Source: a virus (taxonomy: Duplodnaviria > Heunggongvirae > Uroviricota > Caudoviricetes). Taken from it: a DNA stretch of 64,000 bases. Positions within the stretch are counted from its first letter, which is position 1. Every line of letters begins with the position of its first letter. Location of the stretch: IMG/VR virus record IMGVR_UViG_3300038530_001701, one strand, 5' to 3'. This document shows, piece by piece, positions 1,319-37,191 of this stretch. The notes under the pieces are model-generated. The model saw nothing but the letters and a program-made list of their open reading frames with translations. It was not told where the DNA came from and searched no databases. The position numbers were made by a program, and so were the translations under genes.

Positions 1319-3847
1319 ATGGCAGAATTTGAAGTAAGAATTAGTGATTTACCGGGTGGTAACCCCCTGTCTGGTATTGAATTAGTACCTATGGTACAGG
1401 ATGGGGTTACTGTCACTAGATCGGTAAGCGATATAGTACTTGATGGTGGACTTCAGGAACACATTGATGCTCCTGATCCACATCCTCAATATGCTTTCAG
1501 AGTTTTGAATAACCTGTACGCAACTAGAGACCCTCTACCTACCGATGACATTAATGATGGATATACTCCTACATCTCGTTGGGTAAATACAAACACTGGT
1601 GAGTTCTTTATCTGCGTAACTAATAACGCAGGTTCAGCAAGCTGGCAACAAATGACATTAACAGTGGACGAGTTAGGTTCCGCTGCGATGGCTGATGTTG
1701 GTACTGCTGCAACAGAACTACCAACAAACCAAACTACTGATAATAAATACCTACAAAAAACTGATAATCTTGCTTCTGTTTCTAATGCTCAAACCTCATT
1801 TGACAACATTAAACAGAGTGCTACAGACTCTTATGAAGGTGTTGTCGAGTCGGCTACAACCTCTGAGGCTAGGGCGGCAACCGCTGGTAAGTACCCAGAT
1901 GCTCAAAAAGTTCACGAGGCTTTTAATAAGTATGGGTTGGGTACTGATTCTCCAGATAACCTTAATAGTCTCGCTGAAGTTAATGCACAGATTACAACAG
2001 GTGTTTACGCAGTTAGCAATGTGCTTGTTGTTTCTGGTGAAGCTACTTATGGGCATTTGATCGTTTATTCTAATGCTCCCACAAGAACTACTCAGACATT
2101 TAGACCTTTAATCAGCACTGCATCCGAGTTTAAAGAATTCCACAGATATTCTCTAGATGGCGGTACAACTTGGTCTGACTGGGTAGAGATTTATCACACA
2201 GGCAATACTGGCGCTGGTAGTGGTTTGGATTCCGACCTTCTAGATGGTCAAGAAGGGGCATTCTACCAGAACGCTTCCAACTTGAATGCAGGTACTATCA
2301 GTGATGCTAGACTTCCTGCAACAATCTCTAGCGACATTACAGGTAACGCTGCTACAGCTACAAATGCAGATCAATTAGATGGTCAACATGGCGCTTACTA
2401 CTTAGATTGGGCAAATACTACTAACAAACCAGACCCACTTATTACCTTAAATGGTGATGTGTCTGGTAGCGGTACAATGACTAACCTAGGTAATGTGACT
2501 ATTGCTGTTCAGGTTCTTGATGATAGTCACAACCACACTATCAGCAATATCGACAACCTTCAGGGTGAGTTAGATAGCAAGTTTGATAAAGTCGGTGGAA
2601 CAATTAATGGTGATGTTACAATTTCTGGTGGTACAGGCCCAGTAGTTCTAACCGTTGCTGCGGATTCAGATAACGCAACAGAAACTGATACTGCTAAGAT
2701 TGTTTTATCTCAAGATGGTGGTATTGTAAATGGTGAGTGGGGATTTGATGATACCAACGCCATGTATTTCCAACACAATTACACTGGAAACATAGATTTT
2801 AGAACATCTAGTGGTGAGGTTAGGGCAAATAATAGTAGAGTTTTAACTGTCTCTGATGAAGGTTCAGGTAATGGTATTGATTCAGATACTGTAGATGGAC
2901 TACATGCATCTCAGTTCTTAAGATCAGATACCTCTGACACAATGAATGGTATCTTAACTGTCAATAACACTATCAAGGCTTCAGTAGGCCCTAGCAACTG
3001 GGGTCTACAAGGTGAGTCTAACGGGGTTAACTTTAGTGGTTTGTGGTTCTCTGGTGATACTGCACAGATACTGTTGAGGGATTCATCAGGTGCTATTAGA
3101 ACTACTATAAGTGCTGGAGGAACCTCTACAATTGCTGGTACAGTCAACGCTGGTGCATTTGGTGGTAATGGTGCTAACCTTACTAATTTAAACGCCTCTG
3201 AATTATCTTCTGGAACTGTACCTGACGCTAGACTACCTGCTACAATTACTAGTAGTATCACTGGTAATGCTGCTACTGCTACTAAATTAGCTACTTCTAG
3301 AACTATTACTTTAGGTGGTGATGTTACAGGTTCTGCAAGCTTTGATGGTTCCTCTAATATTACTATCACGGCCTCCGTTGGTGATGATAGTCACAACCAT
3401 GTTATCGGCAACGTTGATGGTCTTCAGACTGCACTTGATGGTAAACTAAATGTTGGTGCGAAAGCTGCTGATTCCGAATTACTGGATGGAATTAATTCCA
3501 CTCAGTTCTTAAGATCTGACGCCAACGATACGGCCACAGGGTTCTACACCTTTACAAACGCTATAAGACTAACTGACACTAGTATTCCATTGGAGTTTTT
3601 CGATGGTGCTCAGATTGGTTTTATAGAGCATGAAGGCACGTATGGTTTGCGCATTAGAACTAGAGAAGGAACATCTGGTGTCGGAATTCAAGAAACATTT
3701 ACAATATCTAATCAAGCAGGTGGTGGTGTTACCACTACCGGTGGGCTGACTACACCGAAAGTTAGCTATGAAAATGCGTCCAACACCGAAGGTTGTAGGG
3801 TAGAATATAACGAAACTTCAAAATCTTTGGAGTACAATTTTTTCTAA
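1319..3847 (+). CDS. tail fibre protein with internal repeats
   Basis: 842 aa; duplicated ~35-aa module (GTISDARLPATISSDITGNAATAT / GTVPDARLPATITSSITGNAATAT) plus repeated DDSHNH(T/V)I(S/G)N(I/V)D motifs typical of phage fibre repeats; Ser/Thr/Gly/Asn-rich. Confidence 0.75.
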   Translation: MAEFEVRISDLPGGNPLSGIELVPMVQDGVTVTRSVSDIVLDGGLQEHIDAPDPHPQYAFRVLNNLYATRDPLPTDDINDGYTPTSRWVNTNTGEFFICVTNNAGSASWQQMTLTVDELGSAAMADVGTAATELPTNQTTDNKYLQKTDNLASVSNAQTSFDNIKQSATDSYEGVVESATTSEARAATAGKYPDAQKVHEAFNKYGLGTDSPDNLNSLAEVNAQITTGVYAVSNVLVVSGEATYGHLIVYSNAPTRTTQTFRPLISTASEFKEFHRYSLDGGTTWSDWVEIYHTGNTGAGSGLDSDLLDGQEGAFYQNASNLNAGTISDARLPATISSDITGNAATATNADQLDGQHGAYYLDWANTTNKPDPLITLNGDVSGSGTMTNLGNVTIAVQVLDDSHNHTISNIDNLQGELDSKFDKVGGTINGDVTISGGTGPVVLTVAADSDNATETDTAKIVLSQDGGIVNGEWGFDDTNAMYFQHNYTGNIDFRTSSGEVRANNSRVLTVSDEGSGNGIDSDTVDGLHASQFLRSDTSDTMNGILTVNNTIKASVGPSNWGLQGESNGVNFSGLWFSGDTAQILLRDSSGAIRTTISAGGTSTIAGTVNAGAFGGNGANLTNLNASELSSGTVPDARLPATITSSITGNAATATKLATSRTITLGGDVTGSASFDGSSNITITASVGDDSHNHVIGNVDGLQTALDGKLNVGAKAADSELLDGINSTQFLRSDANDTATGFYTFTNAIRLTDTSIPLEFFDGAQIGFIEHEGTYGLRIRTREGTSGVGIQETFTISNQAGGGVTTTGGLTTPKVSYENASNTEGCRVEYNETSKSLEYNFF

Positions 3848-3856
3848 GGAGTTAAA

Positions 3857-6436
3857 ATGAGCTTAATATCTTACTACAAGTTAGATGGAAATGCTTTAGA
3901 TGAATTAAATAGGCTTGATGGGTCTCCTAGTGGCGTTGTCTGGAGCAATGGACTCTCTGGACAATGCGCAGAGTTTGATGGTGTTAACGACCTTATTAGC
4001 TTTGGTAGTGGGCCTGATTTCTTTCCTCATAAGAATTTTTCACTTTCTATCTGGTTTAAATCTTTTGGGACAACACCGACTACAGGGACAACACCAGCTA
4101 TCTTTGGATTTACCTATGGTGTTCTATTAAGAGTTCTATCTAACAGACTCCAGTTTGGTATTGACACAGGCTCAGATTTTCAATACATATTCTCACCATC
4201 TACATATGATTTTTACAACGATGATACTTGGCACAATGTAATCATTTGTGCATCTGCCAATGAAATGAGAATGTATCTTGATGGTGAACTTGTAGGTTCT
4301 GCTGCTACAACGTGGGCTGGTAATACAAGATGGACGAACAGTGTTGTAATCGGAAGGGATTTAAACAATAGTAATTACTTCTTCCGTGGTCTAATGGATG
4401 ACTTTAGAATCTACGATCACGTTGTTTCTGAGAAAGAAGCAAAAGATATCTATAGATTAAAAGTTCTCCATAAACTTCAAGAAGAACTTGATAATACCGC
4501 TGATTCTGGTAATACAATTACAGTGCCAGACTCTCCAACTATCTTAGGTGATACATCAATAGAGTTCTGGTTTTACCCAACTAACAATTCCAGAAGACAG
4601 ACTATCTGGAATAAAGGGTATGGGGGTGAAGGGACAATTAACTTTGAACCTACTACCAACTATTTGAGATTTTACTCAGGCCCAAATGGCGATAATAGCT
4701 CTGGATATGTAGCAATAGAAAGCTCTACAGGAATTGCTTTGAATCAATGGCATCATGCAGTCATTGTAAGGGATATGAAAAACCAAACATGGCAATGGTA
4801 TCTTGATGGAGTTCCTGATATTCAAGAATCATTCTCGTTTACTTCTGTTGGTGAAACTACTTTTGACCTGACTATTGGTACTGGATATACATCTGATTTT
4901 GTAGGTAAATTGCGTGGAGTTAGACAATACGCACGAGTACTTACTGACAGTGAAGTTGAAGCTTTGTATACAACAGGGCTTTCTATTGATAATTTTGGCT
5001 CAATACATAGTAACTACTTTGTTGAGTCTGGTGTAGTAACTCCTAACATTCTTGATTATAAAACTTGGGTGGTTGGTACTTCCGGTTCACAAGTTGGATT
5101 TTCTGCAAACGGGTCTGCATCTGAAAGTTATATTGTAGAAGATGTTGACCCATTCAGTAAATCTATTCCTGTTTGGGAAGCTAGACCAGACTCTGTTTCT
5201 GGTGCTGACGGTGGTTGGAATGGTGACCTTTTCTCTGTGGACACTACCAAATTTTACAGATTCTCTGTATGGATTAGAAGAACAGTAGTTGGGAATGGTT
5301 CTGCATATTTAGGTCTGAGTGACACTGGTGGTACTGTATTACAAAGGGCTGATGGTAGTGCAAACTCTAACCCATATTTCTGGTCTGGTGGTTGGTCTTA
5401 TGGCGCTGGAGAGTGGATTCTGTTTGTAGGCCACGTATGGCCTGAAGGTTCTGGTTTTGGTGCGTTTCACCCAGACTCAGGTATTTACAGTGTATCTGGT
5501 GGAAGACTTGGAGATATTCAAAGAGATTTTGTATGGGTTCCTGAAGTTACAAATGCACTCCACAGAACTTATCTATATTACTCTACAGATACATCCACAA
5601 GACAACAGTGGTGTTACCCTAGGGTAGATGTTTTGGATGGAACAGAGCCTTCTATAGAAGCTTTGTTGGCTGGATTTGATTCTATTAACGGTGATCGTAT
5701 TGACGAGTTAGGTGCGTCTGATGTTCCTGACAATTTCGGTGTTAAATATGAGAAGACTAATGTTGGTGAATTAAATGAAGTTGGTACTTATCGAGGTCTT
5801 GGTTGGTACATTCCATTTAAATACTCTGCAAAGTCTTTCTCAGAAACTCCAAACGTAGTCACAGATGTTGAAGGAGCAACTATATTCAATGGTGAGTCGG
5901 TTCATTTCTCGAACACAACAAACGAGACTGTTGAAGTTTCTGATCTAACAAATATCTTAGGATCATCAACAACATCAGCTACATTCTCTGTATGGATTAA
6001 TAGAACTGCTTCTAACAATACTTACAACATGTTCATGGGACAGGGGACATTGTATTTCTCTTTCAGGTCATCTAACCAAATACTTTGGTCTATGCCTACA
6101 ACTGCTGGTCAACAGACATTAACTACATCACAAACATATTCAAGCAATGAATGGTTACATTGTGTATTTGTTATTGATGGTACAACAGCAAAGGTTTATG
6201 TAAATGGTGAACAGAAGGCATCAAGAACAGTAGATTCTCCTGTATCTATAGCTAATACATTTTCTTTTGGTGATGGTAGAGATAGTGCATGGTATCCGTT
6301 CCAAGGATATGTTAAAGATTTTAAAGTGTTTAATGTTTCATTATCTGGCGAAGAAGTGTATAATGAATACTCATCTAACTTAAAGGCTTCTATCAATAAG
6401 AATACAGCCTTTGCTAAAGAATTTATCGAGGTATAA
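3857..6436 (+). CDS. tail fibre / receptor-binding protein with concanavalin-A-like (LamG-type) lectin domains
   Basis: 859 aa; N-terminal segment resembles LamG/pentraxin-like jelly-roll domains; lies in the fibre gene block. Confidence 0.6.
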   Translation: MSLISYYKLDGNALDELNRLDGSPSGVVWSNGLSGQCAEFDGVNDLISFGSGPDFFPHKNFSLSIWFKSFGTTPTTGTTPAIFGFTYGVLLRVLSNRLQFGIDTGSDFQYIFSPSTYDFYNDDTWHNVIICASANEMRMYLDGELVGSAATTWAGNTRWTNSVVIGRDLNNSNYFFRGLMDDFRIYDHVVSEKEAKDIYRLKVLHKLQEELDNTADSGNTITVPDSPTILGDTSIEFWFYPTNNSRRQTIWNKGYGGEGTINFEPTTNYLRFYSGPNGDNSSGYVAIESSTGIALNQWHHAVIVRDMKNQTWQWYLDGVPDIQESFSFTSVGETTFDLTIGTGYTSDFVGKLRGVRQYARVLTDSEVEALYTTGLSIDNFGSIHSNYFVESGVVTPNILDYKTWVVGTSGSQVGFSANGSASESYIVEDVDPFSKSIPVWEARPDSVSGADGGWNGDLFSVDTTKFYRFSVWIRRTVVGNGSAYLGLSDTGGTVLQRADGSANSNPYFWSGGWSYGAGEWILFVGHVWPEGSGFGAFHPDSGIYSVSGGRLGDIQRDFVWVPEVTNALHRTYLYYSTDTSTRQQWCYPRVDVLDGTEPSIEALLAGFDSINGDRIDELGASDVPDNFGVKYEKTNVGELNEVGTYRGLGWYIPFKYSAKSFSETPNVVTDVEGATIFNGESVHFSNTTNETVEVSDLTNILGSSTTSATFSVWINRTASNNTYNMFMGQGTLYFSFRSSNQILWSMPTTAGQQTLTTSQTYSSNEWLHCVFVIDGTTAKVYVNGEQKASRTVDSPVSIANTFSFGDGRDSAWYPFQGYVKDFKVFNVSLSGEEVYNEYSSNLKASINKNTAFAKEFIEV

Positions 6437-6441
6437 TAAGA

Positions 6442-7632
6442 ATGGCTAGATTAAGCGATTCAATTACGTATGGAAATCATGCAATAACTGGTGATGTTAC
6501 AGTAGGTCAAAATCTTAGAATCAACGGTACGTACATATTAGGAGACTCAAAAAGGATTTTGAGTTTTTATGATCCTTGGTTGAGATTAAACCCAAATAAT
6601 GATTTTGGGAATGGTATCTTCGCAGGTACGGGGATTTTTAGAACAGATGGTGAGCTTCAAGTAGGCCCTAATGGGTCTCAATTTAAAGTACCTAGTTCTG
6701 GTAACATTGTGGCTGGTGCAACTGTTGATGTTACTGGAAACATTACCATGACAGGTAGTTTGGTAAGTTCTGGTGATTCTAACACTTACGTACAGTTTCA
6801 CGCAGCAGATCAATTTAGAGTGGTTACTGGTGGGACTGAGAGGTTTGAAGTTACAAACTCAGGTGCGACACACTATGGCCCACTCTCTATAAACCATACT
6901 AATGTTCAATTGAATTTGGTCGATACCACATATTCAAACAACTATTGGCAATTAGATCACCAAAACGGTACACTGAATTTCAATTACAACGGTACAGCCC
7001 CTGACTTCATTATAGCTGAATCAGGTAACGCTACTTTCAGACACAACTTGACTGTAGATGGTACAATCTCTGGAGATGGTTCAGGTCTAACTAATCTACC
7101 TGCTGGTGTTGGCGTACCTTCTGGTGTTATTACCATGTGGTCTGGCAGTATTGCAAGCATTCCTTCTGGTTGGGTTTTATGTGATGGTGCGAACGGAACG
7201 CCTAACTTACAAGATAGATTTGTTGTAGGTGCTGGTAACTCTTATGCAGTCGGTGCCACAGGTGGTAGCAAAGATGCGGTTGTTGTATCTCACAGTCACA
7301 ATGGTATTGCAGACTTTTCTGGTGGGCACAGCCACACAATTAACTCTAACGGTAGCCACAGGCACATCGAAGGTGCTGCCCAAGGTAGTGCTTACAGCAG
7401 TGGATACTACCCTTATGGTCGAATCACAAGTCCAACACGCTCTGGTTTTACTTGGGGTAACTATGATAGTACTTCTTACGAGATTTACACAGATTACTCT
7501 GGTACTCACTCACACACAATGGCTTCCGCTCCTAACCACCAACACTTGTTGGATATTGACCCTAGTGGTGAATCAGGTGTGGATAAAAACCTACCACCAT
7601 ACTATGCACTGGCATTTATCATGAAGACGTAA
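6442..7632 (+). CDS. tail fibre protein with His-rich (HxH) C-terminal tip
   Basis: 396 aa; C-terminus SHSHNG..GGHSHTIN..GSHRHIEG..GTHSHTM..NHQH resembles metal-binding HxH repeats of T4 gp12/gp37-type tips; tail-collar-like segment LQDRFVVGAGN. Confidence 0.65.
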   Translation: MARLSDSITYGNHAITGDVTVGQNLRINGTYILGDSKRILSFYDPWLRLNPNNDFGNGIFAGTGIFRTDGELQVGPNGSQFKVPSSGNIVAGATVDVTGNITMTGSLVSSGDSNTYVQFHAADQFRVVTGGTERFEVTNSGATHYGPLSINHTNVQLNLVDTTYSNNYWQLDHQNGTLNFNYNGTAPDFIIAESGNATFRHNLTVDGTISGDGSGLTNLPAGVGVPSGVITMWSGSIASIPSGWVLCDGANGTPNLQDRFVVGAGNSYAVGATGGSKDAVVVSHSHNGIADFSGGHSHTINSNGSHRHIEGAAQGSAYSSGYYPYGRITSPTRSGFTWGNYDSTSYEIYTDYSGTHSHTMASAPNHQHLLDIDPSGESGVDKNLPPYYALAFIMKT

Positions 7633-20011: not shown

Positions 20012-20674
20012 TTAGTAATCGCTGTCGTCTTCGTCAGGGTCAAACGGAGCGTCGTCGTCGTCACCTTCAGCGTCTCCGGCATCAGAGCCGAAATCATCGT
20101 CGTCAGCGTCTTCTGGTTCAGAACTGTAGTCGCCACCTTCAACGACCTCACCAAGTTCATCAACACTGTCAGCAGCTTGGTACTCGATAAGGTTGTCAAC
20201 GCGAACAGCCTTAAGTTTTGCGAAAGTACCAAATTTATTGGTGATAACATCGTACATTACCACACCAGTAGAACCGTTACTTACCAGTTTCAACTTAGTA
20301 ATGTCCTTCAGCAAAGGCTTACCGTCTTCGCTCAAACCAATCTTCTCGTACACCTTAACTCGATACTTCGGGTCAAACTGTTTCAGACGACCAGTTTCCT
20401 TATCTTTGTAGTGAGTATCCTTCTTAAGCTTCACAACATACTGTTCTTCTTGCTCAGGATACGGAGGGTCGATCTTAAAGACCTCCTTGAATTCTTTGTT
20501 GTCAAACTCCTTTGGAGGTTGTTTCTTGAATTCTTTTTTCCAGCGTTTAGCTGTCTTCTCATCGATAATACAATCAACAGTCCATTCGGTGTTTTGTGCA
20601 CCTTCAGTCTCATACTTCTGAGCGGGTTGTTGAATCTTAACGTAAGCCAGAACTACATCTTTCAATACTGCCAT
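20012..20674 (-). CDS. single-stranded DNA-binding protein with acidic C-terminal tail (T7 gp2.5-like)
   Basis: 220 aa; C-terminus DDDDFGSDAGDAEGDDDDAPFDPDEDDSDY ending in aromatic residue, hallmark of T7-type SSB. Confidence 0.65.
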   Translation of the reverse strand: MAVLKDVVLAYVKIQQPAQKYETEGAQNTEWTVDCIIDEKTAKRWKKEFKKQPPKEFDNKEFKEVFKIDPPYPEQEEQYVVKLKKDTHYKDKETGRLKQFDPKYRVKVYEKIGLSEDGKPLLKDITKLKLVSNGSTGVVMYDVITNKFGTFAKLKAVRVDNLIEYQAADSVDELGEVVEGGDYSSEPEDADDDDFGSDAGDAEGDDDDAPFDPDEDDSDY

Positions 20675-20728: not shown

Positions 20729-21127
20729 TTATTTTCGCTTTTTACCATTGCCAAAACTGGCATTATGACTGTGGACTTTTCGCGCCCTAGCGTAAAGAGA
20801 GGCGAATCTCTTTCTTTCTGCTTTAGTCATATCCTTTAGAGACTCAGCACACTCAGGAATAATAGTTTCCTTCTTACCATCATCACGCTTAATGGTGATT
20901 GGTGTAGTTTGTACCGGAGTCAGCAACTGATCCATCTTCGGAGTAAGCCAGCCAGAAACACTCTCAGGCTTCTTCAGACGGTAGGCAGTGCTACCCCCTT
21001 GCTTATCGTTTGGATGGTTCTTCTGGTGACGCTCAAGGCGCTTCTTGCGATTCTTCGCAGCCTTTGCCGGGTAAGAACCGTAGTAGTTCTTCTGAGCGTT
21101 ACCGTTACGACCTGTTTTACCTGCCAT
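20729..21127 (-). CDS. small basic (Lys/Arg-rich) protein, possible DNA-binding
   Basis: 132 aa, pI very basic, RBS present. Confidence 0.4.
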   Translation of the reverse strand: MAGKTGRNGNAQKNYYGSYPAKAAKNRKKRLERHQKNHPNDKQGGSTAYRLKKPESVSGWLTPKMDQLLTPVQTTPITIKRDDGKKETIIPECAESLKDMTKAERKRFASLYARARKVHSHNASFGNGKKRK

Positions 21128-33171: not shown

Positions 33172-33247
33172 TACTTGACTTAGGTTGCCTACAGCACTTA
33201 AAATACTTCAACGGTAAAGTAAGAGCAACCTGATAGTAGGAGATTAT

Positions 33248-33718
33248 ATGGAAATTGGTGATTTATTTGTTGCAACAAGACCTATTGTTAATGGATTAGG
33301 TTGTGTAAGTGCAGGTAAAGTCTTTAAGTTGGTAGAAATTCTTAAATCACAACCTTGGTATCATGCCCCCATCTACAGATTTGACCACAAAGATAGTCGT
33401 ATGGTATTCTCTACATTCTATCCTGAGAAGTGGTTTGAAGCTATGGGCGTTAACGCAAGTCAAGAACAAAAGAAGGAGAAAATTATGTACGAACAAATGA
33501 AACGAGCATTGAAATTGAAACGTGGTGAGCATATTGTTGGTAGTATCGACAAGCAAACTGGTTCGTTGAGCTTTTCAACTAATCCTAGTAACCACGGTAC
33601 AAGCTTCCACAAGGCTTTGGCAGAAGCTAAACGTCTTGCAGGTATTGAGACAGGTAAGAAATTTGTAGTAGTTGAAGTAAAAGCTATTGCATCTGCTGTC
33701 GATATCGTGGTAGAGTAA
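33248..33718 (+). CDS. hypothetical protein
   Basis: 156-aa ORF, RBS ggag. Confidence 0.45.
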   Translation: MEIGDLFVATRPIVNGLGCVSAGKVFKLVEILKSQPWYHAPIYRFDHKDSRMVFSTFYPEKWFEAMGVNASQEQKKEKIMYEQMKRALKLKRGEHIVGSIDKQTGSLSFSTNPSNHGTSFHKALAEAKRLAGIETGKKFVVVEVKAIASAVDIVVE

Positions 33719-33742
33719 CACAATCAAGTCCTCTACGGAGGG

Positions 33743-33864
33743 CTTATTGAAAGATAGCCTGTGGCCCTGCAAACTGACTACAAAACTTGAGCGGGGTATG
33801 TGGTTAGCTCTGAGTCAGCAGAGAAAGGTAGCCCAATCTGCCTCTCAGGCTGTCTTTCAATAAG
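33743..33864 (+). ncRNA. ~120-nt structured element closed by a 19-bp inverted repeat (cttattgaaagatagcctg / caggctgtctttcaataag)
   Basis: Near-perfect 19-bp IR (one G-U) enclosing GC-rich internal hairpins; non-coding; first element of the structured-RNA cluster. Confidence 0.3.
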
Positions 33865-33868
33865 TTTT

Positions 33869-33925
33869 AGGATGATTACAGCAATTTATACACTAGACTC
33901 TTAATCTAACCAGTATATTCATCCT
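33869..33925 (+). ncRNA. minimal hairpin carrying conserved UUACAGCAAU motif
   Basis: aggatga-...-tcatcct 7-bp closing helix; motif ttacagcaat immediately 3' of the 5' arm as in elements A-D. Confidence 0.35.
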
Positions 33926-34096
33926 GTATAAATAGACTTTACTTTTCAACTGCTTTAGGGTACTCTGAGAATCCTAATGGGAACCGTCAGAGATAGTTAG
34001 CATAGGTTTGAAGATTGATCACTTCAAGAACTACCAAGCCCTGACAAATTCTAGATAACTGTCGATAAAAACAAAGCAGTTGAAAAGTAAAGTCTT

Positions 34097-34192
34097 AGAA
34101 TGTGTCCAGCAAACTAAAAATTTTTCCGCCGAAATTGGAAACGAAGGGTTCGACTCCCCCGTACTAGGCTAGTGGTAGCCGAAAGACATTCT
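34097..34192 (+). ncRNA. Y-RNA-like / tRNA-mimic element A (degenerate)
   Basis: Closing helix agaatgt/acattct; variant motif gtccagcaaact; T-loop-like ttcgact; D-arm-like ggc-tagtggtag-cc. Confidence 0.4.
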
Positions 34193-34215
34193 GTTTAATA
34201 AATGAGGAGACAATC

Positions 34216-34674
34216 ATGAGTAAGATTCTTGAACAAATTAAAAAAGATCGCTTGCAAGCACGTAAAGATCGTGATACCTTTACTGCTGTAACACTGACAA
34301 CTCTGCTTGGTGAAGCATCACCTTCAGGTAACGATACTATCAGCGATAAGGAAGTTCAGAAAGTGATTGAAAAGTTTGCAAAGAACCAGCGTTCAATGCT
34401 TGCTCATGATCTTTCAACACTTCAGCGTAGTGAAATCAACCGAGAGTTGAAGATTTACGAAAAGTATTTGCCAAAGCAGTTGACAGAGGATGAGATTAAG
34501 CGTATTCTCTGCACTGAATACACAGTATATGTGGATGGAAATGGTAAAGGAAACCTTAACGTAGGCTCTGTCATGCGTTATCTGTCTAGCAACTATGCTG
34601 GACAATACGATGGTAAGGTGGCAAGTAAGGTTGCAAAAGAATTTGTTGACAGCATCGGCAACGGTGTGGTTTAA
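34216..34674 (+). CDS. hypothetical protein
   Basis: 152-aa ORF with strong RBS (aggag), between structured RNA elements. Confidence 0.45.
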   Translation: MSKILEQIKKDRLQARKDRDTFTAVTLTTLLGEASPSGNDTISDKEVQKVIEKFAKNQRSMLAHDLSTLQRSEINRELKIYEKYLPKQLTEDEIKRILCTEYTVYVDGNGKGNLNVGSVMRYLSSNYAGQYDGKVASKVAKEFVDSIGNGVV

Positions 34675-34682
34675 TAAGCTTT

Positions 34683-34790
34683 AGGTTCACTTACAGCAAT
34701 AACTTACTAAAGCCAATCGGGAGGGTTAGGTTCGATTCCTAAATAGGTAGTGTAGTGGTAGCACGCCCGACAAAAAGTAAATGTGAACCT
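34683..34790 (+). ncRNA. Y-RNA-like / tRNA-mimic element B
   Basis: 8-bp closing helix aggttcac/gtgaacct; bulge ttacagcaataa; ttact/agtaa helix; tcggg/cccga helix; canonical T-arm ttagg-TTCGATT-cctaa; D-arm gtg-tagtggtag-cac. Confidence 0.5.
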
Positions 34791-34820
34791 GCTCTAATTT
34801 AAACTAAGGAGGTATCAACC

Positions 34821-35150
34821 ATGAACGAACAAATAAGTCTAGAAGGTTTCAAGAAATTTGTTTCAGAACAACCTGAAGGTGAATCGATTGATCATTGGGG
34901 TGGTGGCTGGTGTTCTTGTGCAGTCGGTGCCTATGTTAAAACAACCCTTGGAAAACCTGTTGACAAATCTTGGGATGATGAGGTACAGTACGTATCAAAG
35001 TCGTTCATGAGAGACACTGATAAGGTTCCCTCTGGTTTAGAGAGACTTCTTGCAAACGCTGACCAAGCCACTTATAAGTGTCCAACATACGGAGCTTTGA
35101 ACAAACTACTGGAAAAATATACAGTAGTAGAGGAATTTGAAGTAAGTTAA
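34821..35150 (+). CDS. hypothetical protein
   Basis: 109-aa ORF with RBS aaggagg. Confidence 0.45.
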   Translation: MNEQISLEGFKKFVSEQPEGESIDHWGGGWCSCAVGAYVKTTLGKPVDKSWDDEVQYVSKSFMRDTDKVPSGLERLLANADQATYKCPTYGALNKLLEKYTVVEEFEVS

Positions 35151-35155
35151 GAATT

Positions 35156-35286
35156 AGATTGATTACAGCAATCCTACTATTCCATCCAAAGGACGAGACG
35201 CCGTGTTCGATTCCGGCACTCCCCGCCAATTAAACTATGTTATGGGGAGTTGGTGTAGTGGCAGCACACGTAAGTAATATCAATCT
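35156..35286 (+). ncRNA. Y-RNA-like / circularly permuted tRNA-like element C
   Basis: Closing helix agattgat/atcaatct; bulge tacagcaatcc; T-loop ttcgatt; acceptor-like 7/7 complementarity actcccc (3') ... ggggagt (5') with encoded discriminator+CCA (gCCA); D-arm gtg-tagtggcag-cac. Confidence 0.55.
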
Positions 35287-35305
35287 GTTGAACTAGGAGC
35301 TTATT

Positions 35306-35524
35306 ATGAAAAAATTGACTGTAGAGGTTTATGAAATTCACGAAAAACTGCCGGAATATGAGTGTGAGAATGTTTTGGTATTCACAAGTCATTTTCTAAA
35401 AGGTGTAGACGCATTTTATCAAGATGGCAAGTTTTGGTTGGATGATGAACTTGATACGTTTTTCAAGGAAGATACAATAATTGGTTGGTGTTATTACCCA
35501 AAAAAGGAACAAATTATTAAATAA
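35306..35524 (+). CDS. hypothetical protein
   Basis: 72-aa ORF with RBS. Confidence 0.4.
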   Translation: MKKLTVEVYEIHEKLPEYECENVLVFTSHFLKGVDAFYQDGKFWLDDELDTFFKEDTIIGWCYYPKKEQIIK

Positions 35525-35529
35525 GTTTT

Positions 35530-35658
35530 AGATTCACTACAGCAATTCTTACTAATGGGGACTGAAGGTCGCTGGTTCGAATCCAGCCCTGCCGCCCAAC
35601 TAACGATATGCGGCGGGTAGCTCAGTGGTAGAGCGTCAGTATAAAGTAATGTGAATCT
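35530..35658 (+). ncRNA. Y-RNA-like / circularly permuted tRNA-like element D (best-formed)
   Basis: Order 5'->3': closing helix agattcac (pairs gtgaatct at 35651); bulge tacagcaattc; ttact/agtaa; anticodon-stem-like actga (pairs tcagt at 35636); variable aggtc; perfect T-arm gctgg-TTCGAAT-ccagc; acceptor 3' cctgccg + c + CCA; 12-nt linker; acceptor 5' cggcggg; ta; D-arm gctc-agtggta-gagc. Confidence 0.6.
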
Positions 35659-35672
35659 GTTAAATAAAAGTT

Positions 35673-35705
35673 TGCTTACAGCACAAAATTTTGCTAAAGT
35701 AAGCA
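35673..35705 (+). ncRNA. small hairpin containing the TTACAGCA motif just upstream of the vWA gene RBS
   Basis: tgcttac-agcacaaaattttgctaaa-gtaagca, 7-bp stem. Confidence 0.3.
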
Positions 35706-35733
35706 TTATCGCAAACTGAAAGGAGGAAACAAT

Positions 35734-37146
35734 ATGTCTAGACTAATTAAAGGTATTCAGCAAGGCAACGCAACAGCACGTACTGCTAACGGTGCCAAAA
35801 CTCATGCAACCTCACACAATGCCTGTGTAGACTTGTTTGGTGTTGTTGGTTCAGCACGTAACATGGATAAGGGTACTCTGGTACGTATGTTTGATAACGC
35901 ATACGGTGAGAATCCTGAAGTAGCTGTACGTATCATGCAGTGGCTTCGTGATGTTCGTGGTGGTGCTGGTGAGCGTCAAGCTTTCCGTAACCTGTTCGCT
36001 GATCTGATCGAAAACCATCTGGAAATTGCCAAGCGTGTTGTGGTGAAAGTTCCTGAGCTTGGTCGTTGGGATGATGTTCTGGTTGCTGTTGGTACTCCTT
36101 TGGAGCCTGAAGCATTTGAACTGATTCGTGCAGGTCTGAACACACCTGAAACTGCTGGTCTCTGCGCTAAGTGGATGCCGCGTCAAGGTGAAGTAGCTTA
36201 CAAGCTGCGTAAAGCATTCTCTATGACTCCGAAAGGCTGGCGTAAGATGCTTGTAAGCCTCTCTAACACTGTTGAGCAGAAAATGTGTGCAAAGCAGTGG
36301 CATGAGATTGAGTACGGCAAACTGCCTTCTAAGGCTGCTGCAATGTACCAGAATGCATTCAAGCGTAACGACGAGGCACGTTACAACCGTTATGTAGAAG
36401 GTTTGCAAAAAGGTACTGAGAAAATCAATGCCGGTGCGATTTTCCCTCATGATGTTGTAGTGTCTGCACGTAAGGGTAATGATAAGGTTGCTACTGAACA
36501 GTGGAAGGCTCTGCCAAACTACATGGAAGAATCTGGTGAGAACATCTTGCCAATGATCGATGTATCTGGTAGTATGTCTTGGACTAATGTCGGTGGTAAT
36601 CCGAACCTGACTTGCCTTGACGTTGCTCTGGCTCTTGGTATCTATACCTCTGAGCGTATGGGTGGAATGTTTGCAAATCACTACATTTCATTCTCTGAGC
36701 GTCCTGTACTTGGTAAGGTTCAAGGTACTACCCTGAATAGCCGTGTACATAACGTAATGGGTAAGCATGTTGGTTACAGCACTAACTTCCAAGCTGCTTT
36801 TGAGTTGATTCTGCGAACAGCGGTTGACAACGATCTGGCACAGGAAGAAATGCCAACTATGATTCTGGCTCTGTCTGATATGGAATTTAACGCTGCTGGT
36901 CGTGGTAATACTAACTTCCAAGCAATCAAGCGTAAGTTCGAAAATGCAGGCTACAAGATGCCTAAGTTGGTTTTCTGGAATCTGAATGGTCGTGAAGGTA
37001 ACATGCCTGTCACTGTTCATGATTCAGGTACAGCACTGGTTAGCGGGTTCTCGCCTGCAATCCTGAAGTCTGTACTTTCAGCGAAAACTGTAACTCCGGT
37101 TGATATTATGCTTGACACGGTAATGGTTGATCGGTACAATTTCTAA
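35734..37146 (+). CDS. vWA-domain protein (MIDAS DVSGSM) with N-terminal alpha-helical domain; candidate Ro60/TROVE-like RNP protein
   Basis: 470 aa; MIDAS motif LPMIDVSGSMSW followed by vWA-like beta-alpha pattern; Ro60 = TROVE + vWA architecture; directly downstream of tRNA-mimic RNA cluster; strong RBS aaaggagg. Confidence 0.55.
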   Translation: MSRLIKGIQQGNATARTANGAKTHATSHNACVDLFGVVGSARNMDKGTLVRMFDNAYGENPEVAVRIMQWLRDVRGGAGERQAFRNLFADLIENHLEIAKRVVVKVPELGRWDDVLVAVGTPLEPEAFELIRAGLNTPETAGLCAKWMPRQGEVAYKLRKAFSMTPKGWRKMLVSLSNTVEQKMCAKQWHEIEYGKLPSKAAAMYQNAFKRNDEARYNRYVEGLQKGTEKINAGAIFPHDVVVSARKGNDKVATEQWKALPNYMEESGENILPMIDVSGSMSWTNVGGNPNLTCLDVALALGIYTSERMGGMFANHYISFSERPVLGKVQGTTLNSRVHNVMGKHVGYSTNFQAAFELILRTAVDNDLAQEEMPTMILALSDMEFNAAGRGNTNFQAIKRKFENAGYKMPKLVFWNLNGREGNMPVTVHDSGTALVSGFSPAILKSVLSAKTVTPVDIMLDTVMVDRYNF

Positions 37147-37153
37147 ACCTGAA

Positions 37154-37191
37154 GCCCTCTTGAGTAATTCAGGAGGGCATTTTTTCGTTTT
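37154..37191 (+). terminator. rho-independent terminator
   Basis: gccctc-ttgagtaattcag-gagggc hairpin + attttttcgtttt. Confidence 0.6.

Follow-up and report, generated by a model that had tools for sequence, protein, structure and literature searches.

Ro60 and its Y RNAs form a conserved RNA-surveillance particle; for bacteria and phages, almost all that is known of its biology concerns canonical TROVE proteins. Bacterial YrlA RNAs (RF02553), which are ligands of bacterial and phage Ro60/Rsr and are modified by TruB/DusA, carry a tRNA-like domain that may bring a tRNA-binding effector to the Ro ring. [quoted passage not shown] The 2014 survey that defined YrlA covered only the surroundings of TROVE-annotated genes. 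Among phages, phiLo encodes a Ro60 with at least two small RNAs, Yrl1 and Yrl2, just upstream (PDB 9KOP, 9L5Y; PMC12135203). Here, we analyse element C, a candidate Y-like RNA gene in a 64,000-nt stretch of caudoviral DNA (IMGVR_UViG_3300038530_001701; hereafter the window), which ends 447 nt upstream of the gene for a 470-aa Ro60-fold protein on the same strand. The reading we favour, with a probability of roughly 0.75, is that element C is a modular Y-RNA-like non-coding RNA that combines a docking module for the Ro60-fold protein with a permuted tRNA mimic, whose CCA end would be released by RNase P. Coordinates refer to the + strand of the window, and L-numbers denote related loci carrying a Ro-fold gene.

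Element C is built from a terminal 8-bp helix (P1), a UACAGCAA loop, a T-arm, a 7-bp acceptor-like hairpin, an encoded G-CCA and a D-arm, in the order of a permuted tRNA (Table 1). Its termini read uUAGAUUGAU...AUCAAUCUGuu, with the conserved terminal G at 35287, and all tRNA-elbow nucleotides have equivalents within it: U8, A14, G15:C48, G18, G19, A21, G53, U54, U55, C56, A58 and C61. An initial annotation of this DNA had already described a permuted tRNA-like element with an acceptor-like helix and an encoded CCA, sharing the topology of the nearby element D. Sequence inspection and a scripted check find every feature it listed in place and the acceptor-like helix to be genuine. The outer flanks pair, with the ‘bulge’ TACAGCAATCC (35164–35174) adjoining the 5′ flank; the T-loop TTCGATT (35206–35212) is followed by ACTCCCC-G-CCA; exactly 19 nt separate the two acceptor strands; and GGGGAGT is followed directly by TG. 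The D-arm, given as GTG-TAGTGGCAG-CAC, is better read as GTGT-AGTGGCA-GCAC, with 4 bp and a 7-nt loop, and the T-stem is imperfect as described (GCCG(U)G/CCGGC, with a single bulged U). That account included neither the Y-RNA-like partnership with a Ro60-fold protein proposed here nor the helix and UACAGCAA module that element C shares with its neighbours.

The fold is maintained by compensatory change. We seeded a covariance model (CM) from element C and its near-identical orthologue in L081, since MAFFT misaligned the D-arm of element D, and iterated it once; R1 and R2 denote the successive models. Element C scores 171 bits with R1 and 108 bits with R2 and has orthologues in L081, L089 and L090. 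In the CM-fitted family alignment (81 sequences, 67 distinct), 87.5% of cells are paired, compared with 35–43% in slid controls, and 30 of 31 pairs change on both sides. Among the distinct sequences the acceptor helix is 92.4% paired, with all 7 pairs changed on both sides; the T-stem (98.7%) and P1 (99.4%) likewise show covariation and compensatory changes, and the D-stem is 95% paired. As a check on this model-fitted alignment, RNAalifold was run on C-type and D-type orthologues aligned by MAFFT alone; it recovers P1, the T-arm and the acceptor hairpin with compensatory pairs. The initial annotation had chosen, beforehand, loss of the ACTCCCC/GGGGAGT pairing in relatives as the outcome that would count against it; the pairing is instead kept, as ACTCCGC/GCGGAGT in L090 and ACCCCGC/GCGGGGT in L089. 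In C-type P1, GA/TC is replaced by CG/CG. Across the four C-type copies, compensation is seen at two pairs each of the acceptor and P1, while G-CCA is invariant.

Element C is thus a real, structured element under purifying selection. The earlier suspicion that this copy may be diverging is not borne out: the bulged-U T-stem is identical in three of the four orthologous phages (window, L081 and L089; the stem is regular in L090), and only 20 of 117 columns vary outside the distal loop, against 10 of 15 within it (Fisher p=1.3e-4). Selection extends to the NCCA, which never varies in the C- and D-type copies of the window’s phage group, while the flanking stems are compensated and the remainder of the loop drifts. 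Every C-type copy in this group has G-CCA followed by 14–15 AU-rich, fast-changing nucleotides ending in UAU before G+1. Five D-type copies have (C/A)-CCA plus 9–12 nt, with G-1 opposite C73 in four of them; element D itself has the acceptor CCUGCCG/CGGCGGG, C73-CCA and G-1, and its G-1:C73 pair is typical of tRNA-His. More distant relatives lack the CCA, and 2–6 nt close their acceptor hairpin. A constant NCCA beside a drifting loop is the pattern expected of a spacer that is removed by RNase P and 3′ trimming to leave a free CCA end.

The initial annotation judged a 7-bp pairing with a CCA very unlikely by chance, which holds for the conjunction of features but not for the helix. Perfect 7-bp hairpins with a 12–24-nt loop number 101 per strand in the window against 60–77 in shuffles, so that a bare match is common. 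With a T-loop just upstream, CCA at +2 to +4 and a D-loop motif downstream, the combination occurs once in 128 kb (both strands), at 35218; element D has all of these features and goes uncounted in this exact-match scan because it contains a G-U pair. The decisive proof against chance is covariation in orthologues rather than hairpin rarity. Single-sequence minimum free energy folding yields no significant element (z −0.4 to −1.6; −1.4 for element C), and thermodynamics alone would therefore not flag the array to which it belongs. ARAGORN, tmRNA mode included, reports 0 tRNA or tmRNA genes in the 64 kb, and Rfam at gathering thresholds has no match anywhere in the window, tRNA and tmRNA included. 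When un-permuted and given a dummy anticodon loop, C, D and L090C are called tRNAs by ARAGORN, which then accepts the D-arm of element C; the native sequences are not called.

The terminal helix and UACAGCAA module is common to an entire array. Seven elements, all on the + strand, lie within 2.5 kb at 33182–35718, and CM searches of the 64 kb find no match outside them. The earlier account counted four elements, A to D; the shared topology of C and D stands, and the number rises to seven. All follow one pattern, in which a start (U)AG-N6 leads into (U)UACAGCA(A) and the end is the complementary N6-CU-G. Four contain tRNA-like inserts, with T- and D-arms only in A and B and a full acceptor hairpin added in C and D, and the other three are hairpins of 50–60 nt. 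Family-wide, the termini are strongly conserved (start A 90%, G 93%; end C 95%, U 96%, G 99%), as is the motif (C 99%, G 99%, C 99%, A 97%, A 87%; 97 distinct elements).

A plausible binding partner for this module is encoded directly downstream of the array. An AlphaFold2 model of the 470-aa protein, built on 40 homologues (predicted local distance difference test 86, predicted template modelling score 0.86), retrieves full-length Ro60 structures as all of the top eight Foldseek matches in the PDB (E 2.6e-8 to 3.5e-6, template modelling score up to 0.66). These comprise Ro60 of Thermus phage phiLo, Deinococcus Rsr, and Xenopus and human Ro60; the next matches are isolated vWA domains (E≥7e-3). 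The fold match gives a HEAT-repeat ring closed by a vWA domain with a MIDAS (metal-ion-dependent adhesion site), whose residues D276, S278, S280, T350 and D382 (DxSxS...T...D) are invariant in the 40 homologues. Full-length fold matches confined to Ro60, together with the invariant MIDAS, identify the neighbour as a divergent Ro60 paralogue. Judged on the predicted structure, the fold search settled this relationship where sequence searches did not: phmmer found no match in the PDB, the best PDB profile match is a marginal one to a phage Ro60 at the MIDAS motif, and identity to Ro60 structures is 12–17%. The Ro60 of phiLo is both the best structural (E=2.6e-8) and the best profile match.

The RNA family tracks this gene. 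We searched both strands of 94 loci carrying a Ro-fold gene with R2. All 110 matches fall on the strand of the gene, 95 of them lie within 1.5 kb of it (33.5% expected, p=2e-30), and 53 of the 94 loci have at least one match. A model-free pattern scan, in which the opposite strand served as control, yields 117 sites on the strand of the gene against 11 on the opposite one. This exclusive, strand-specific association crosses phage families, recurring in the unrelated phages FelixO1, Bas63, Klebsiella KP2025, mycobacteriophage Samty and Listeria CKA15.

In design, element C closely resembles YrlA. Both have an end-joining helix, a 5′-strand motif, an ‘anticodon-stem-like’ helix, a variable loop, a T-arm, an acceptor and a D-arm in permuted order. 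Both keep the elbow nucleotides, and element C has those that make the tertiary interactions. YrlA genes are found within ~4 kb of a TROVE-domain Ro60 orthologue and share its strand; element C agrees in position and strand, but its neighbour has the Ro60 fold with no Pfam TROVE match. Several RNAs at one locus are common in both families. The Rfam YrlA model gives element D 38.2 bits (E=5.5e-6), but the gathering score is 69, and no YrlA match reaches the gathering threshold in ten related loci. The phage docking motif is UWCMGCAA where YrlA has GNCGAAN0-1G; the partner belongs to DUF2828/DUF7788 rather than Pfam TROVE; C and D encode a discriminator and CCA after a full 7-bp acceptor, followed in C by a 15-nt unconstrained spacer; and a locus may hold up to seven elements, some of them lacking a tRNA-like part. 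The phiLo system also pairs a phage Ro60-fold protein with small RNAs just upstream, but its Ro60 is a canonical TROVE protein, and its Yrls have the CGAA motif, no tRNA likeness being described for them. Element C is therefore YrlA-like in design but lies outside Rfam YrlA and every other Rfam family.

From these observations we propose, on sequence grounds, that the elements are expressed in the window phage and that the 470-aa protein binds them. The first module, the terminal helix (AG...CU plus 3′ G) with the single-stranded UACAGCAA common to all seven elements, would dock the Ro60-fold protein. The second, comprising the variable loop, T-arm, 7-bp acceptor hairpin and D-arm, is a permuted tRNA mimic with the full set of elbow nucleotides. 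Host RNase P would cut 5′ of G+1, where U stands at −1, and exonucleases would trim back to the CCA. We infer that the product would be a two-piece RNA held by four helices and presenting a free tRNA-like CCA end. By its YrlA-like design, with a tRNA-like domain, the RNA would tether or gate the phage Ro-like protein during infection.

Several results weigh against this model. A 201-nt search with element C gives no Rfam YrlA match at E≤10, and the Rsr contact motif GNCGAAN0-1G is absent, UACAGCAAUCC following P1 in its place. The 470-aa protein has no match to Pfam TROVE (PF05731) at E≤0.01, only to DUF2828 and DUF7788. R2 finds no element in 41 of the 94 loci, and promoter-like sites in the array are no commoner than in shuffles. 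The covariation counts come from CM-fitted alignments that include related sequences. In C-type elements the ‘anticodon-stem’ region has only 3 bp (35193–35195/35269–35271) and competes with a local hairpin at 35181–35193. Finally, Bas63 gp130, a member of the same protein family, rescues T7 on Ppl without the phage RNAs, so at least one activity of the protein is independent of them (PMC11482910).

This last result also speaks for an RNA acting apart from the Ro-like protein. Under such a reading the elements would be tRNA-like decoys or sponges that soak up a host tRNA-targeting defence, a tRNA-modifying enzyme or a CCA-acting enzyme, and gene adjacency would only reflect a common ‘tRNA/RNA-repair’ neighbourhood. 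The conserved elbow and encoded CCA would suit recognition by tRNA enzymes, and gene and elements lie inside or beside phage tRNA clusters in FelixO1, Bas63, KP2025 and CKA15. Yet the helix and UWCMGCAA module also occurs in elements without any tRNA-like part, and it follows the Ro-fold gene on the same strand in diverse phages, including the window with its 0 tRNAs in 64 kb. A helix-plus-bulge module so sharply conserved calls for a dedicated binding partner, and we regard an independent decoy as unlikely. It is quite unlikely, too, that the elements are a cis-acting intergenic cassette of T4-like phages, serving as a regulatory, processing or recombination signal instead of a trans-acting RNA. 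Each window element does lie 10–30 nt upstream of the ribosome-binding site of the next open reading frame (ORF), one short element overlaps a promoter-like TTGACT-18-TAAAAT, and the exchanged order of B and C and the HNH insertions in L082 and L088 are typical of cassette shuffling. The known cassettes of this kind, PeSLs, are simple terminator hairpins with sigma70 promoters found genome-wide in hyperplastic regions (PMC4122927). The present elements, in contrast, are confined to the neighbourhood of the Ro-fold gene (33182–35718 in the window), stand in tandem without intervening ORFs in CKA15 and KP2025, occur in non-T4 phages and enclose a complete covarying tRNA-like fold. Identity with PeSLs is ruled out by this confinement and the chance-level frequency of promoter-like sites.

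The tRNA-like part itself could also be read as a gene. If element C encoded a decoding tRNA in permuted form, maturation would have to strip off the terminal helix, join the ends and open the acceptor loop. The NCCA in the sequence fits this idea, as do the 7-bp acceptor, D- and T-arms that are complete, and the local hairpin, which sits in the right place with an anticodon-loop-like 7-nt loop whose three central bases vary among the C-type orthologues (CCA, UCC, GUC). With its own hairpin used as the anticodon arm, the L090 copy is called tRNA-Asp(GUC) by ARAGORN, but the window and L089 copies are not called, the stem has only 3 good pairs, and a complete permuted tRNA formed through the C-type hairpin was rejected because L090 alone passes. 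An anticodon loop is missing from D-type elements and most of the family, in which the 5′ and 3′ strands pair to make the ‘anticodon stem’ and covary accordingly. The family-wide module points to protein docking, and we know of no bacterial or phage pathway that circularises permuted tRNAs; a decoding tRNA is very improbable. Two-piece tmRNA and permuted tRNA genes run from the 3′ acceptor strand through CCA and a spacer to the 5′ acceptor strand, the spacer being excised in maturation. The order T-arm, CCA, spacer, 5′ acceptor strand and D-arm accordingly resembles a permuted ssrA gene or a tRNA–tRNA junction, and the authors of YrlA had to filter out tRNA dimers. A two-piece tmRNA, or a decaying remnant of tandem tRNA genes in which a 3′ half meets the next 5′ half, is nevertheless hardly credible for element C. 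Its acceptor strands are mutually complementary and covary under purifying selection, no tRNA halves flank it, and it has no tag reading frame, pseudoknots or anticodon arm. ARAGORN, which is able to detect permuted tmRNA, finds nothing, there is no Rfam tRNA or tmRNA match, and neither program detects either family. The compensatory changes effectively refute the remnant, and the Y-RNA-like reading remains the one we prefer.

Table 1. Elements of the array, parts of element C and the adjoining gene unit, in window coordinates.
Feature	Position	Strand	Evidence or remarks
Short element, helix + UACAGCA + hairpin	33182..33232	+	R2 27 bits; RF01414 20.5 bits at the same coordinates; pattern scan
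Short element	33869..33926	+	R2 32 bits; RF01414 18.3 bits
Element A, degenerate tRNA-like member with GUCCAGCAA motif	34097..34193	+	R2 31 bits; orthologues in L081, L089, L090
Element B, module with T- and D-arms, without acceptor stem	34683..34791	+	R2 73 bits; orthologue L081 4489-4596
Element C, complete Y-like RNA gene, 132 nt	35156..35287	+	Terminal helix, UACAGCAA module, permuted tRNA mimic
C: P1 5′ strand AGATTGAT	35156..35163	+	Pairs with ATCAATCT at 35279-35286
C: single-stranded motif UACAGCAA	35164..35171	+	Family consensus U-W-C-M-G-C-A-A; proposed Ro-like protein docking site
C: C-type-specific local hairpin UCC-[AUCCAAA]-GGA	35181..35193	+	RNAalifold on MAFFT alignment; 7-nt loop A-U-NNN-R-A
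C: T-arm GCCG(U)G-UUCGAUU-CCGGC	35200..35217	+	One bulged U; G53, U54, U55, C56, A58, C61 equivalents
C: acceptor-like 3′ strand ACTCCCC	35218..35224	+	7/7 pairing with GGGGAGT at 35244-35250
C: encoded discriminator G (35225) and CCA (35226-35228)	35225..35228	+	Invariant in 4/4 C-type orthologues
C: AU-rich, fast-drifting rest of acceptor-closing loop	35229..35243	+	Ends UAU before G+1; predicted excised spacer
C: D-arm GUGU-AGUGGCA-GCAC	35253..35267	+	A14, G15, G18, G19, A21 equivalents; preceded by U8 G9 at 35251-35252
Element D, sister tRNA-mimic Y-like RNA	35530..35659	+	R1 59 bits, R2 84 bits; Rfam YrlA 38.2 bits
Short element directly upstream of Ro-like gene	35669..35718	+	Pattern scan; RF01414 18.5 bits
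Ro60-fold protein gene, 470 aa, proposed protein partner	35734..37146	+	Pfam DUF2828 + DUF7788; PHROG 850 ‘RNA-binding protein’
Intrinsic terminator closing array and gene unit	37154..37178	+	11-bp stem and T-run

The strong matches in the other phages give further detail. None of those in FelixO1, Bas63, KP2025, Samty or CKA15 is annotated as RNA. In FelixO1 (L084) the element at 7424–7549 (66.7 bits) lies within a tRNA cluster; KP2025 (L085) has two tandem copies at 5708–5823 and 5842–5959; and Samty (L083) has one at 5544–5672 (58 bits). Bas63 (L095, MZ501086) carries one tRNA-like element (20782–20908, 67.8 bits) and one short element (20240–20298) beside gp130. The PhageMaP study guessed that some annotated tRNAs beside gp130 might be Y RNAs (PMC11482910); the elements found here are unannotated and located between the tRNA genes. 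The ‘hypothetical protein’ ORFs bas63_0137, FelixO1 ORF94 and Samty gp55 overlap RNA elements and are probably not genes. A 432-nt ‘tRNA-Arg’ annotated in KP2025 (3905–4336) overlaps the start of the DUF2828 gene; Rfam recognises a tRNA at 3905–3976 only, and the long feature is an annotation artefact.

Listeria phage CKA15 (L086, OR088597) has three tandem elements of the helix, ACAGCAA and CUG type at 3664–3720, 3753–3809 and 3822–3927. The trio sits behind a sigmaA promoter, TTGACA-17-TATCAT, in an unannotated gap directly upstream of the Ro-like gene CKA15_055, and an RtcB-type ‘tRNA splicing ligase’ is encoded 1.3 kb downstream. The Ro-like protein was detected in virions, and the same study suspected very abundant CKA15 transcripts of being Y RNAs (PMC12282133). 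We reject this assignment for CKA15_059-061, a region reported to give ~67% of phage transcripts and to be of doubtful coding status. The region (L086 2470–3021) is a full-length match to ROOL RNA (RF03087, 90.1 bits, E=8e-17; gathering score 99.1), which probably explains its abundant RNA; the Y-like elements occupy other parts of the locus.

A third class of element combines the helix and UACAGCAA module with an interior in which CCUUUC...GGGGAAAGCAAAA is conserved. Its usual place is immediately upstream of a tRNA-like element, as at L004 2558–2653, L057 4740–4835, L007 4683–4782, L069 4397–4492, L009 3571–3674, L023 3133–3233 and others.

Within the window, an inverted repeat with 22-bp perfect arms (GACTTTACTTTTCAACTGCTTT and AAAGCAGTTGAAAAGTAAAGTC) occupies 33935–34095, between a short element and A, and is kept at L081 3326–3487; it gave spurious miRNA-family matches on both strands. 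Structured-looking non-coding stretches lie upstream of the arrays at 33750–33865 in the window and at L082 3745–3870, where two T-arm-like hairpins, CTGGTTCGAATCCAG and AAAGGTTCAAGTCCTTTG, stand within an outer stem. Elements B and C are in swapped order between the window (34683–35287) and L081 (4132–4596), and the small ORFs that separate them differ. Beside the Ro-like gene, L082 and L088 (4472–4990) contain insertions of HNH endonuclease genes, and every tRNA-like element has been lost from L082. The shared module may serve as a recombination substrate.

The wider context is T4-like, with Band_7 and YqeY-like genes followed by rIIA-like and rIIB genes, and is syntenic in L081–L094; megablast of the 4.2-kb region against GenBank phages finds no match. 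The YqeY-like gene lies inside the array (34216–34674), is related to the GatB tail domain and falls in a PHROG named ‘tRNA amidotransferase’. Its product could be a lineage-specific binder of the tRNA elbow; as a family-wide effector it is ruled out, co-occurring in only 8 of 94 loci, all in a close phage group. The Ro-like gene adjoins tRNA clusters in many loci, and in L047 a phage tmRNA (8743–9234, Rfam 87 bits) lies ~2.3 kb downstream of it. The protein family itself is large: metagenomes supply at least 8000 members, and it occurs in 710 records of GenBank phages, among them Felixounavirus, KVP40-like vibriophages, Listeria A511/P100-like phages, Staphylococcus, Campylobacter and Enterococcus phages, and mycobacteriophages, whose members are annotated ‘Ro-like RNA binding protein’. 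Bas63 gp130 is 47% identical to the window protein (E=3e-144); it counters the Ppl defence system and works alone in T7 (PMC11482910).

Two features stand out in element C, the encoded and conserved CCA and a docking module like that of Class I RNAs (RF01414). Class I RNAs are abundant developmental non-coding RNAs reported as unique to Dictyostelia; they begin with AAG and end with CUGU, their terminal stem has 6 bp, and U3, C6, C9, A10 and A11 are universal in their 11-nt motif (PMC7919456). They share with the phage elements a short end-joining helix, an (A)AG start, a CUG(U) end, a motif (CCUUACAGCAA) after the 5′ strand and a variable interior. The Rfam consensus, GaUcuC-CUUACAGCAAU...GagAuC-UG, has the same blueprint as the phage docking module. 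In element C, UACAGCAA adjoins the 5′ stem strand as the 11-nt motif does, and the phage profile at the Class I positions is C6 99%, G8 99%, C9 99%, A10 97% and A11 87%. The short window elements, which have a Class I-like terminal stem, a UUACAGCAA motif and a CUG(U) end, and L034 6556–6613 match RF01414 at their exact boundaries with 18–32 bits, against a gathering score of 41.5.

Element C itself (132 nt, compared with 42–65 nt for Class I) has no + strand match to RF01414. Class I RNAs differ further in being eukaryotic, ~60 nt long and expressed from DUSE promoters, and the RRM protein Rnp1A is their only named binder. Element C, by contrast, has an 80-nt tRNA-like insert and a phage context (rIIA/rIIB synteny, PHROG, phage BLAST), and is no dictyostelid DUSE gene. 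The literature we searched draws no link between Class I RNAs and either the phage Y-like elements or DUF2828. DUF2828 proteins are reported for plants and a tardigrade assembly. It is a tentative idea, more doubtful than probable, that the docking module and the Class I core are the same device, in a superfamily spanning phages and eukaryotes in which Class I RNAs are Y-type and C and D are the first members with a genomic CCA. If so, the common partner would be the DUF2828/DUF7788 Ro60 paralogue, present also in eukaryotes, and C and D would become, after RNase P opening, two-piece RNAs with a chargeable-looking acceptor end.

A second and much larger phage family of Ro60-fold proteins (DUF2828/DUF7788, PHROG 850) thus has its own associated, probably cognate small RNAs, a widespread and so far undescribed relative of bacterial Y RNAs. 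Their differing docking motif escapes current Rfam models, and they are unannotated or mis-annotated as small ORFs in FelixO1, Bas63, CKA15 and cluster-E-type mycobacteriophages. The PhageMaP and CKA15 studies both suspected Y RNAs near genes for such proteins, without finding them. Within the family, one member has been validated experimentally as an anti-defence gene, acting against Ppl, and another is packaged in virions; given the anti-defence role, identification of the putative RNA partners makes the mechanism directly testable. The Class I likeness offers a protein-partner hypothesis for an orphan class of eukaryotic non-coding RNA. The encoded CCA, under selection on its 7-bp acceptor, leads us to predict that the tRNA mimic is processed into two pieces with a free acceptor end, which would be a new twist in the conflict between phage and host over tRNAs.

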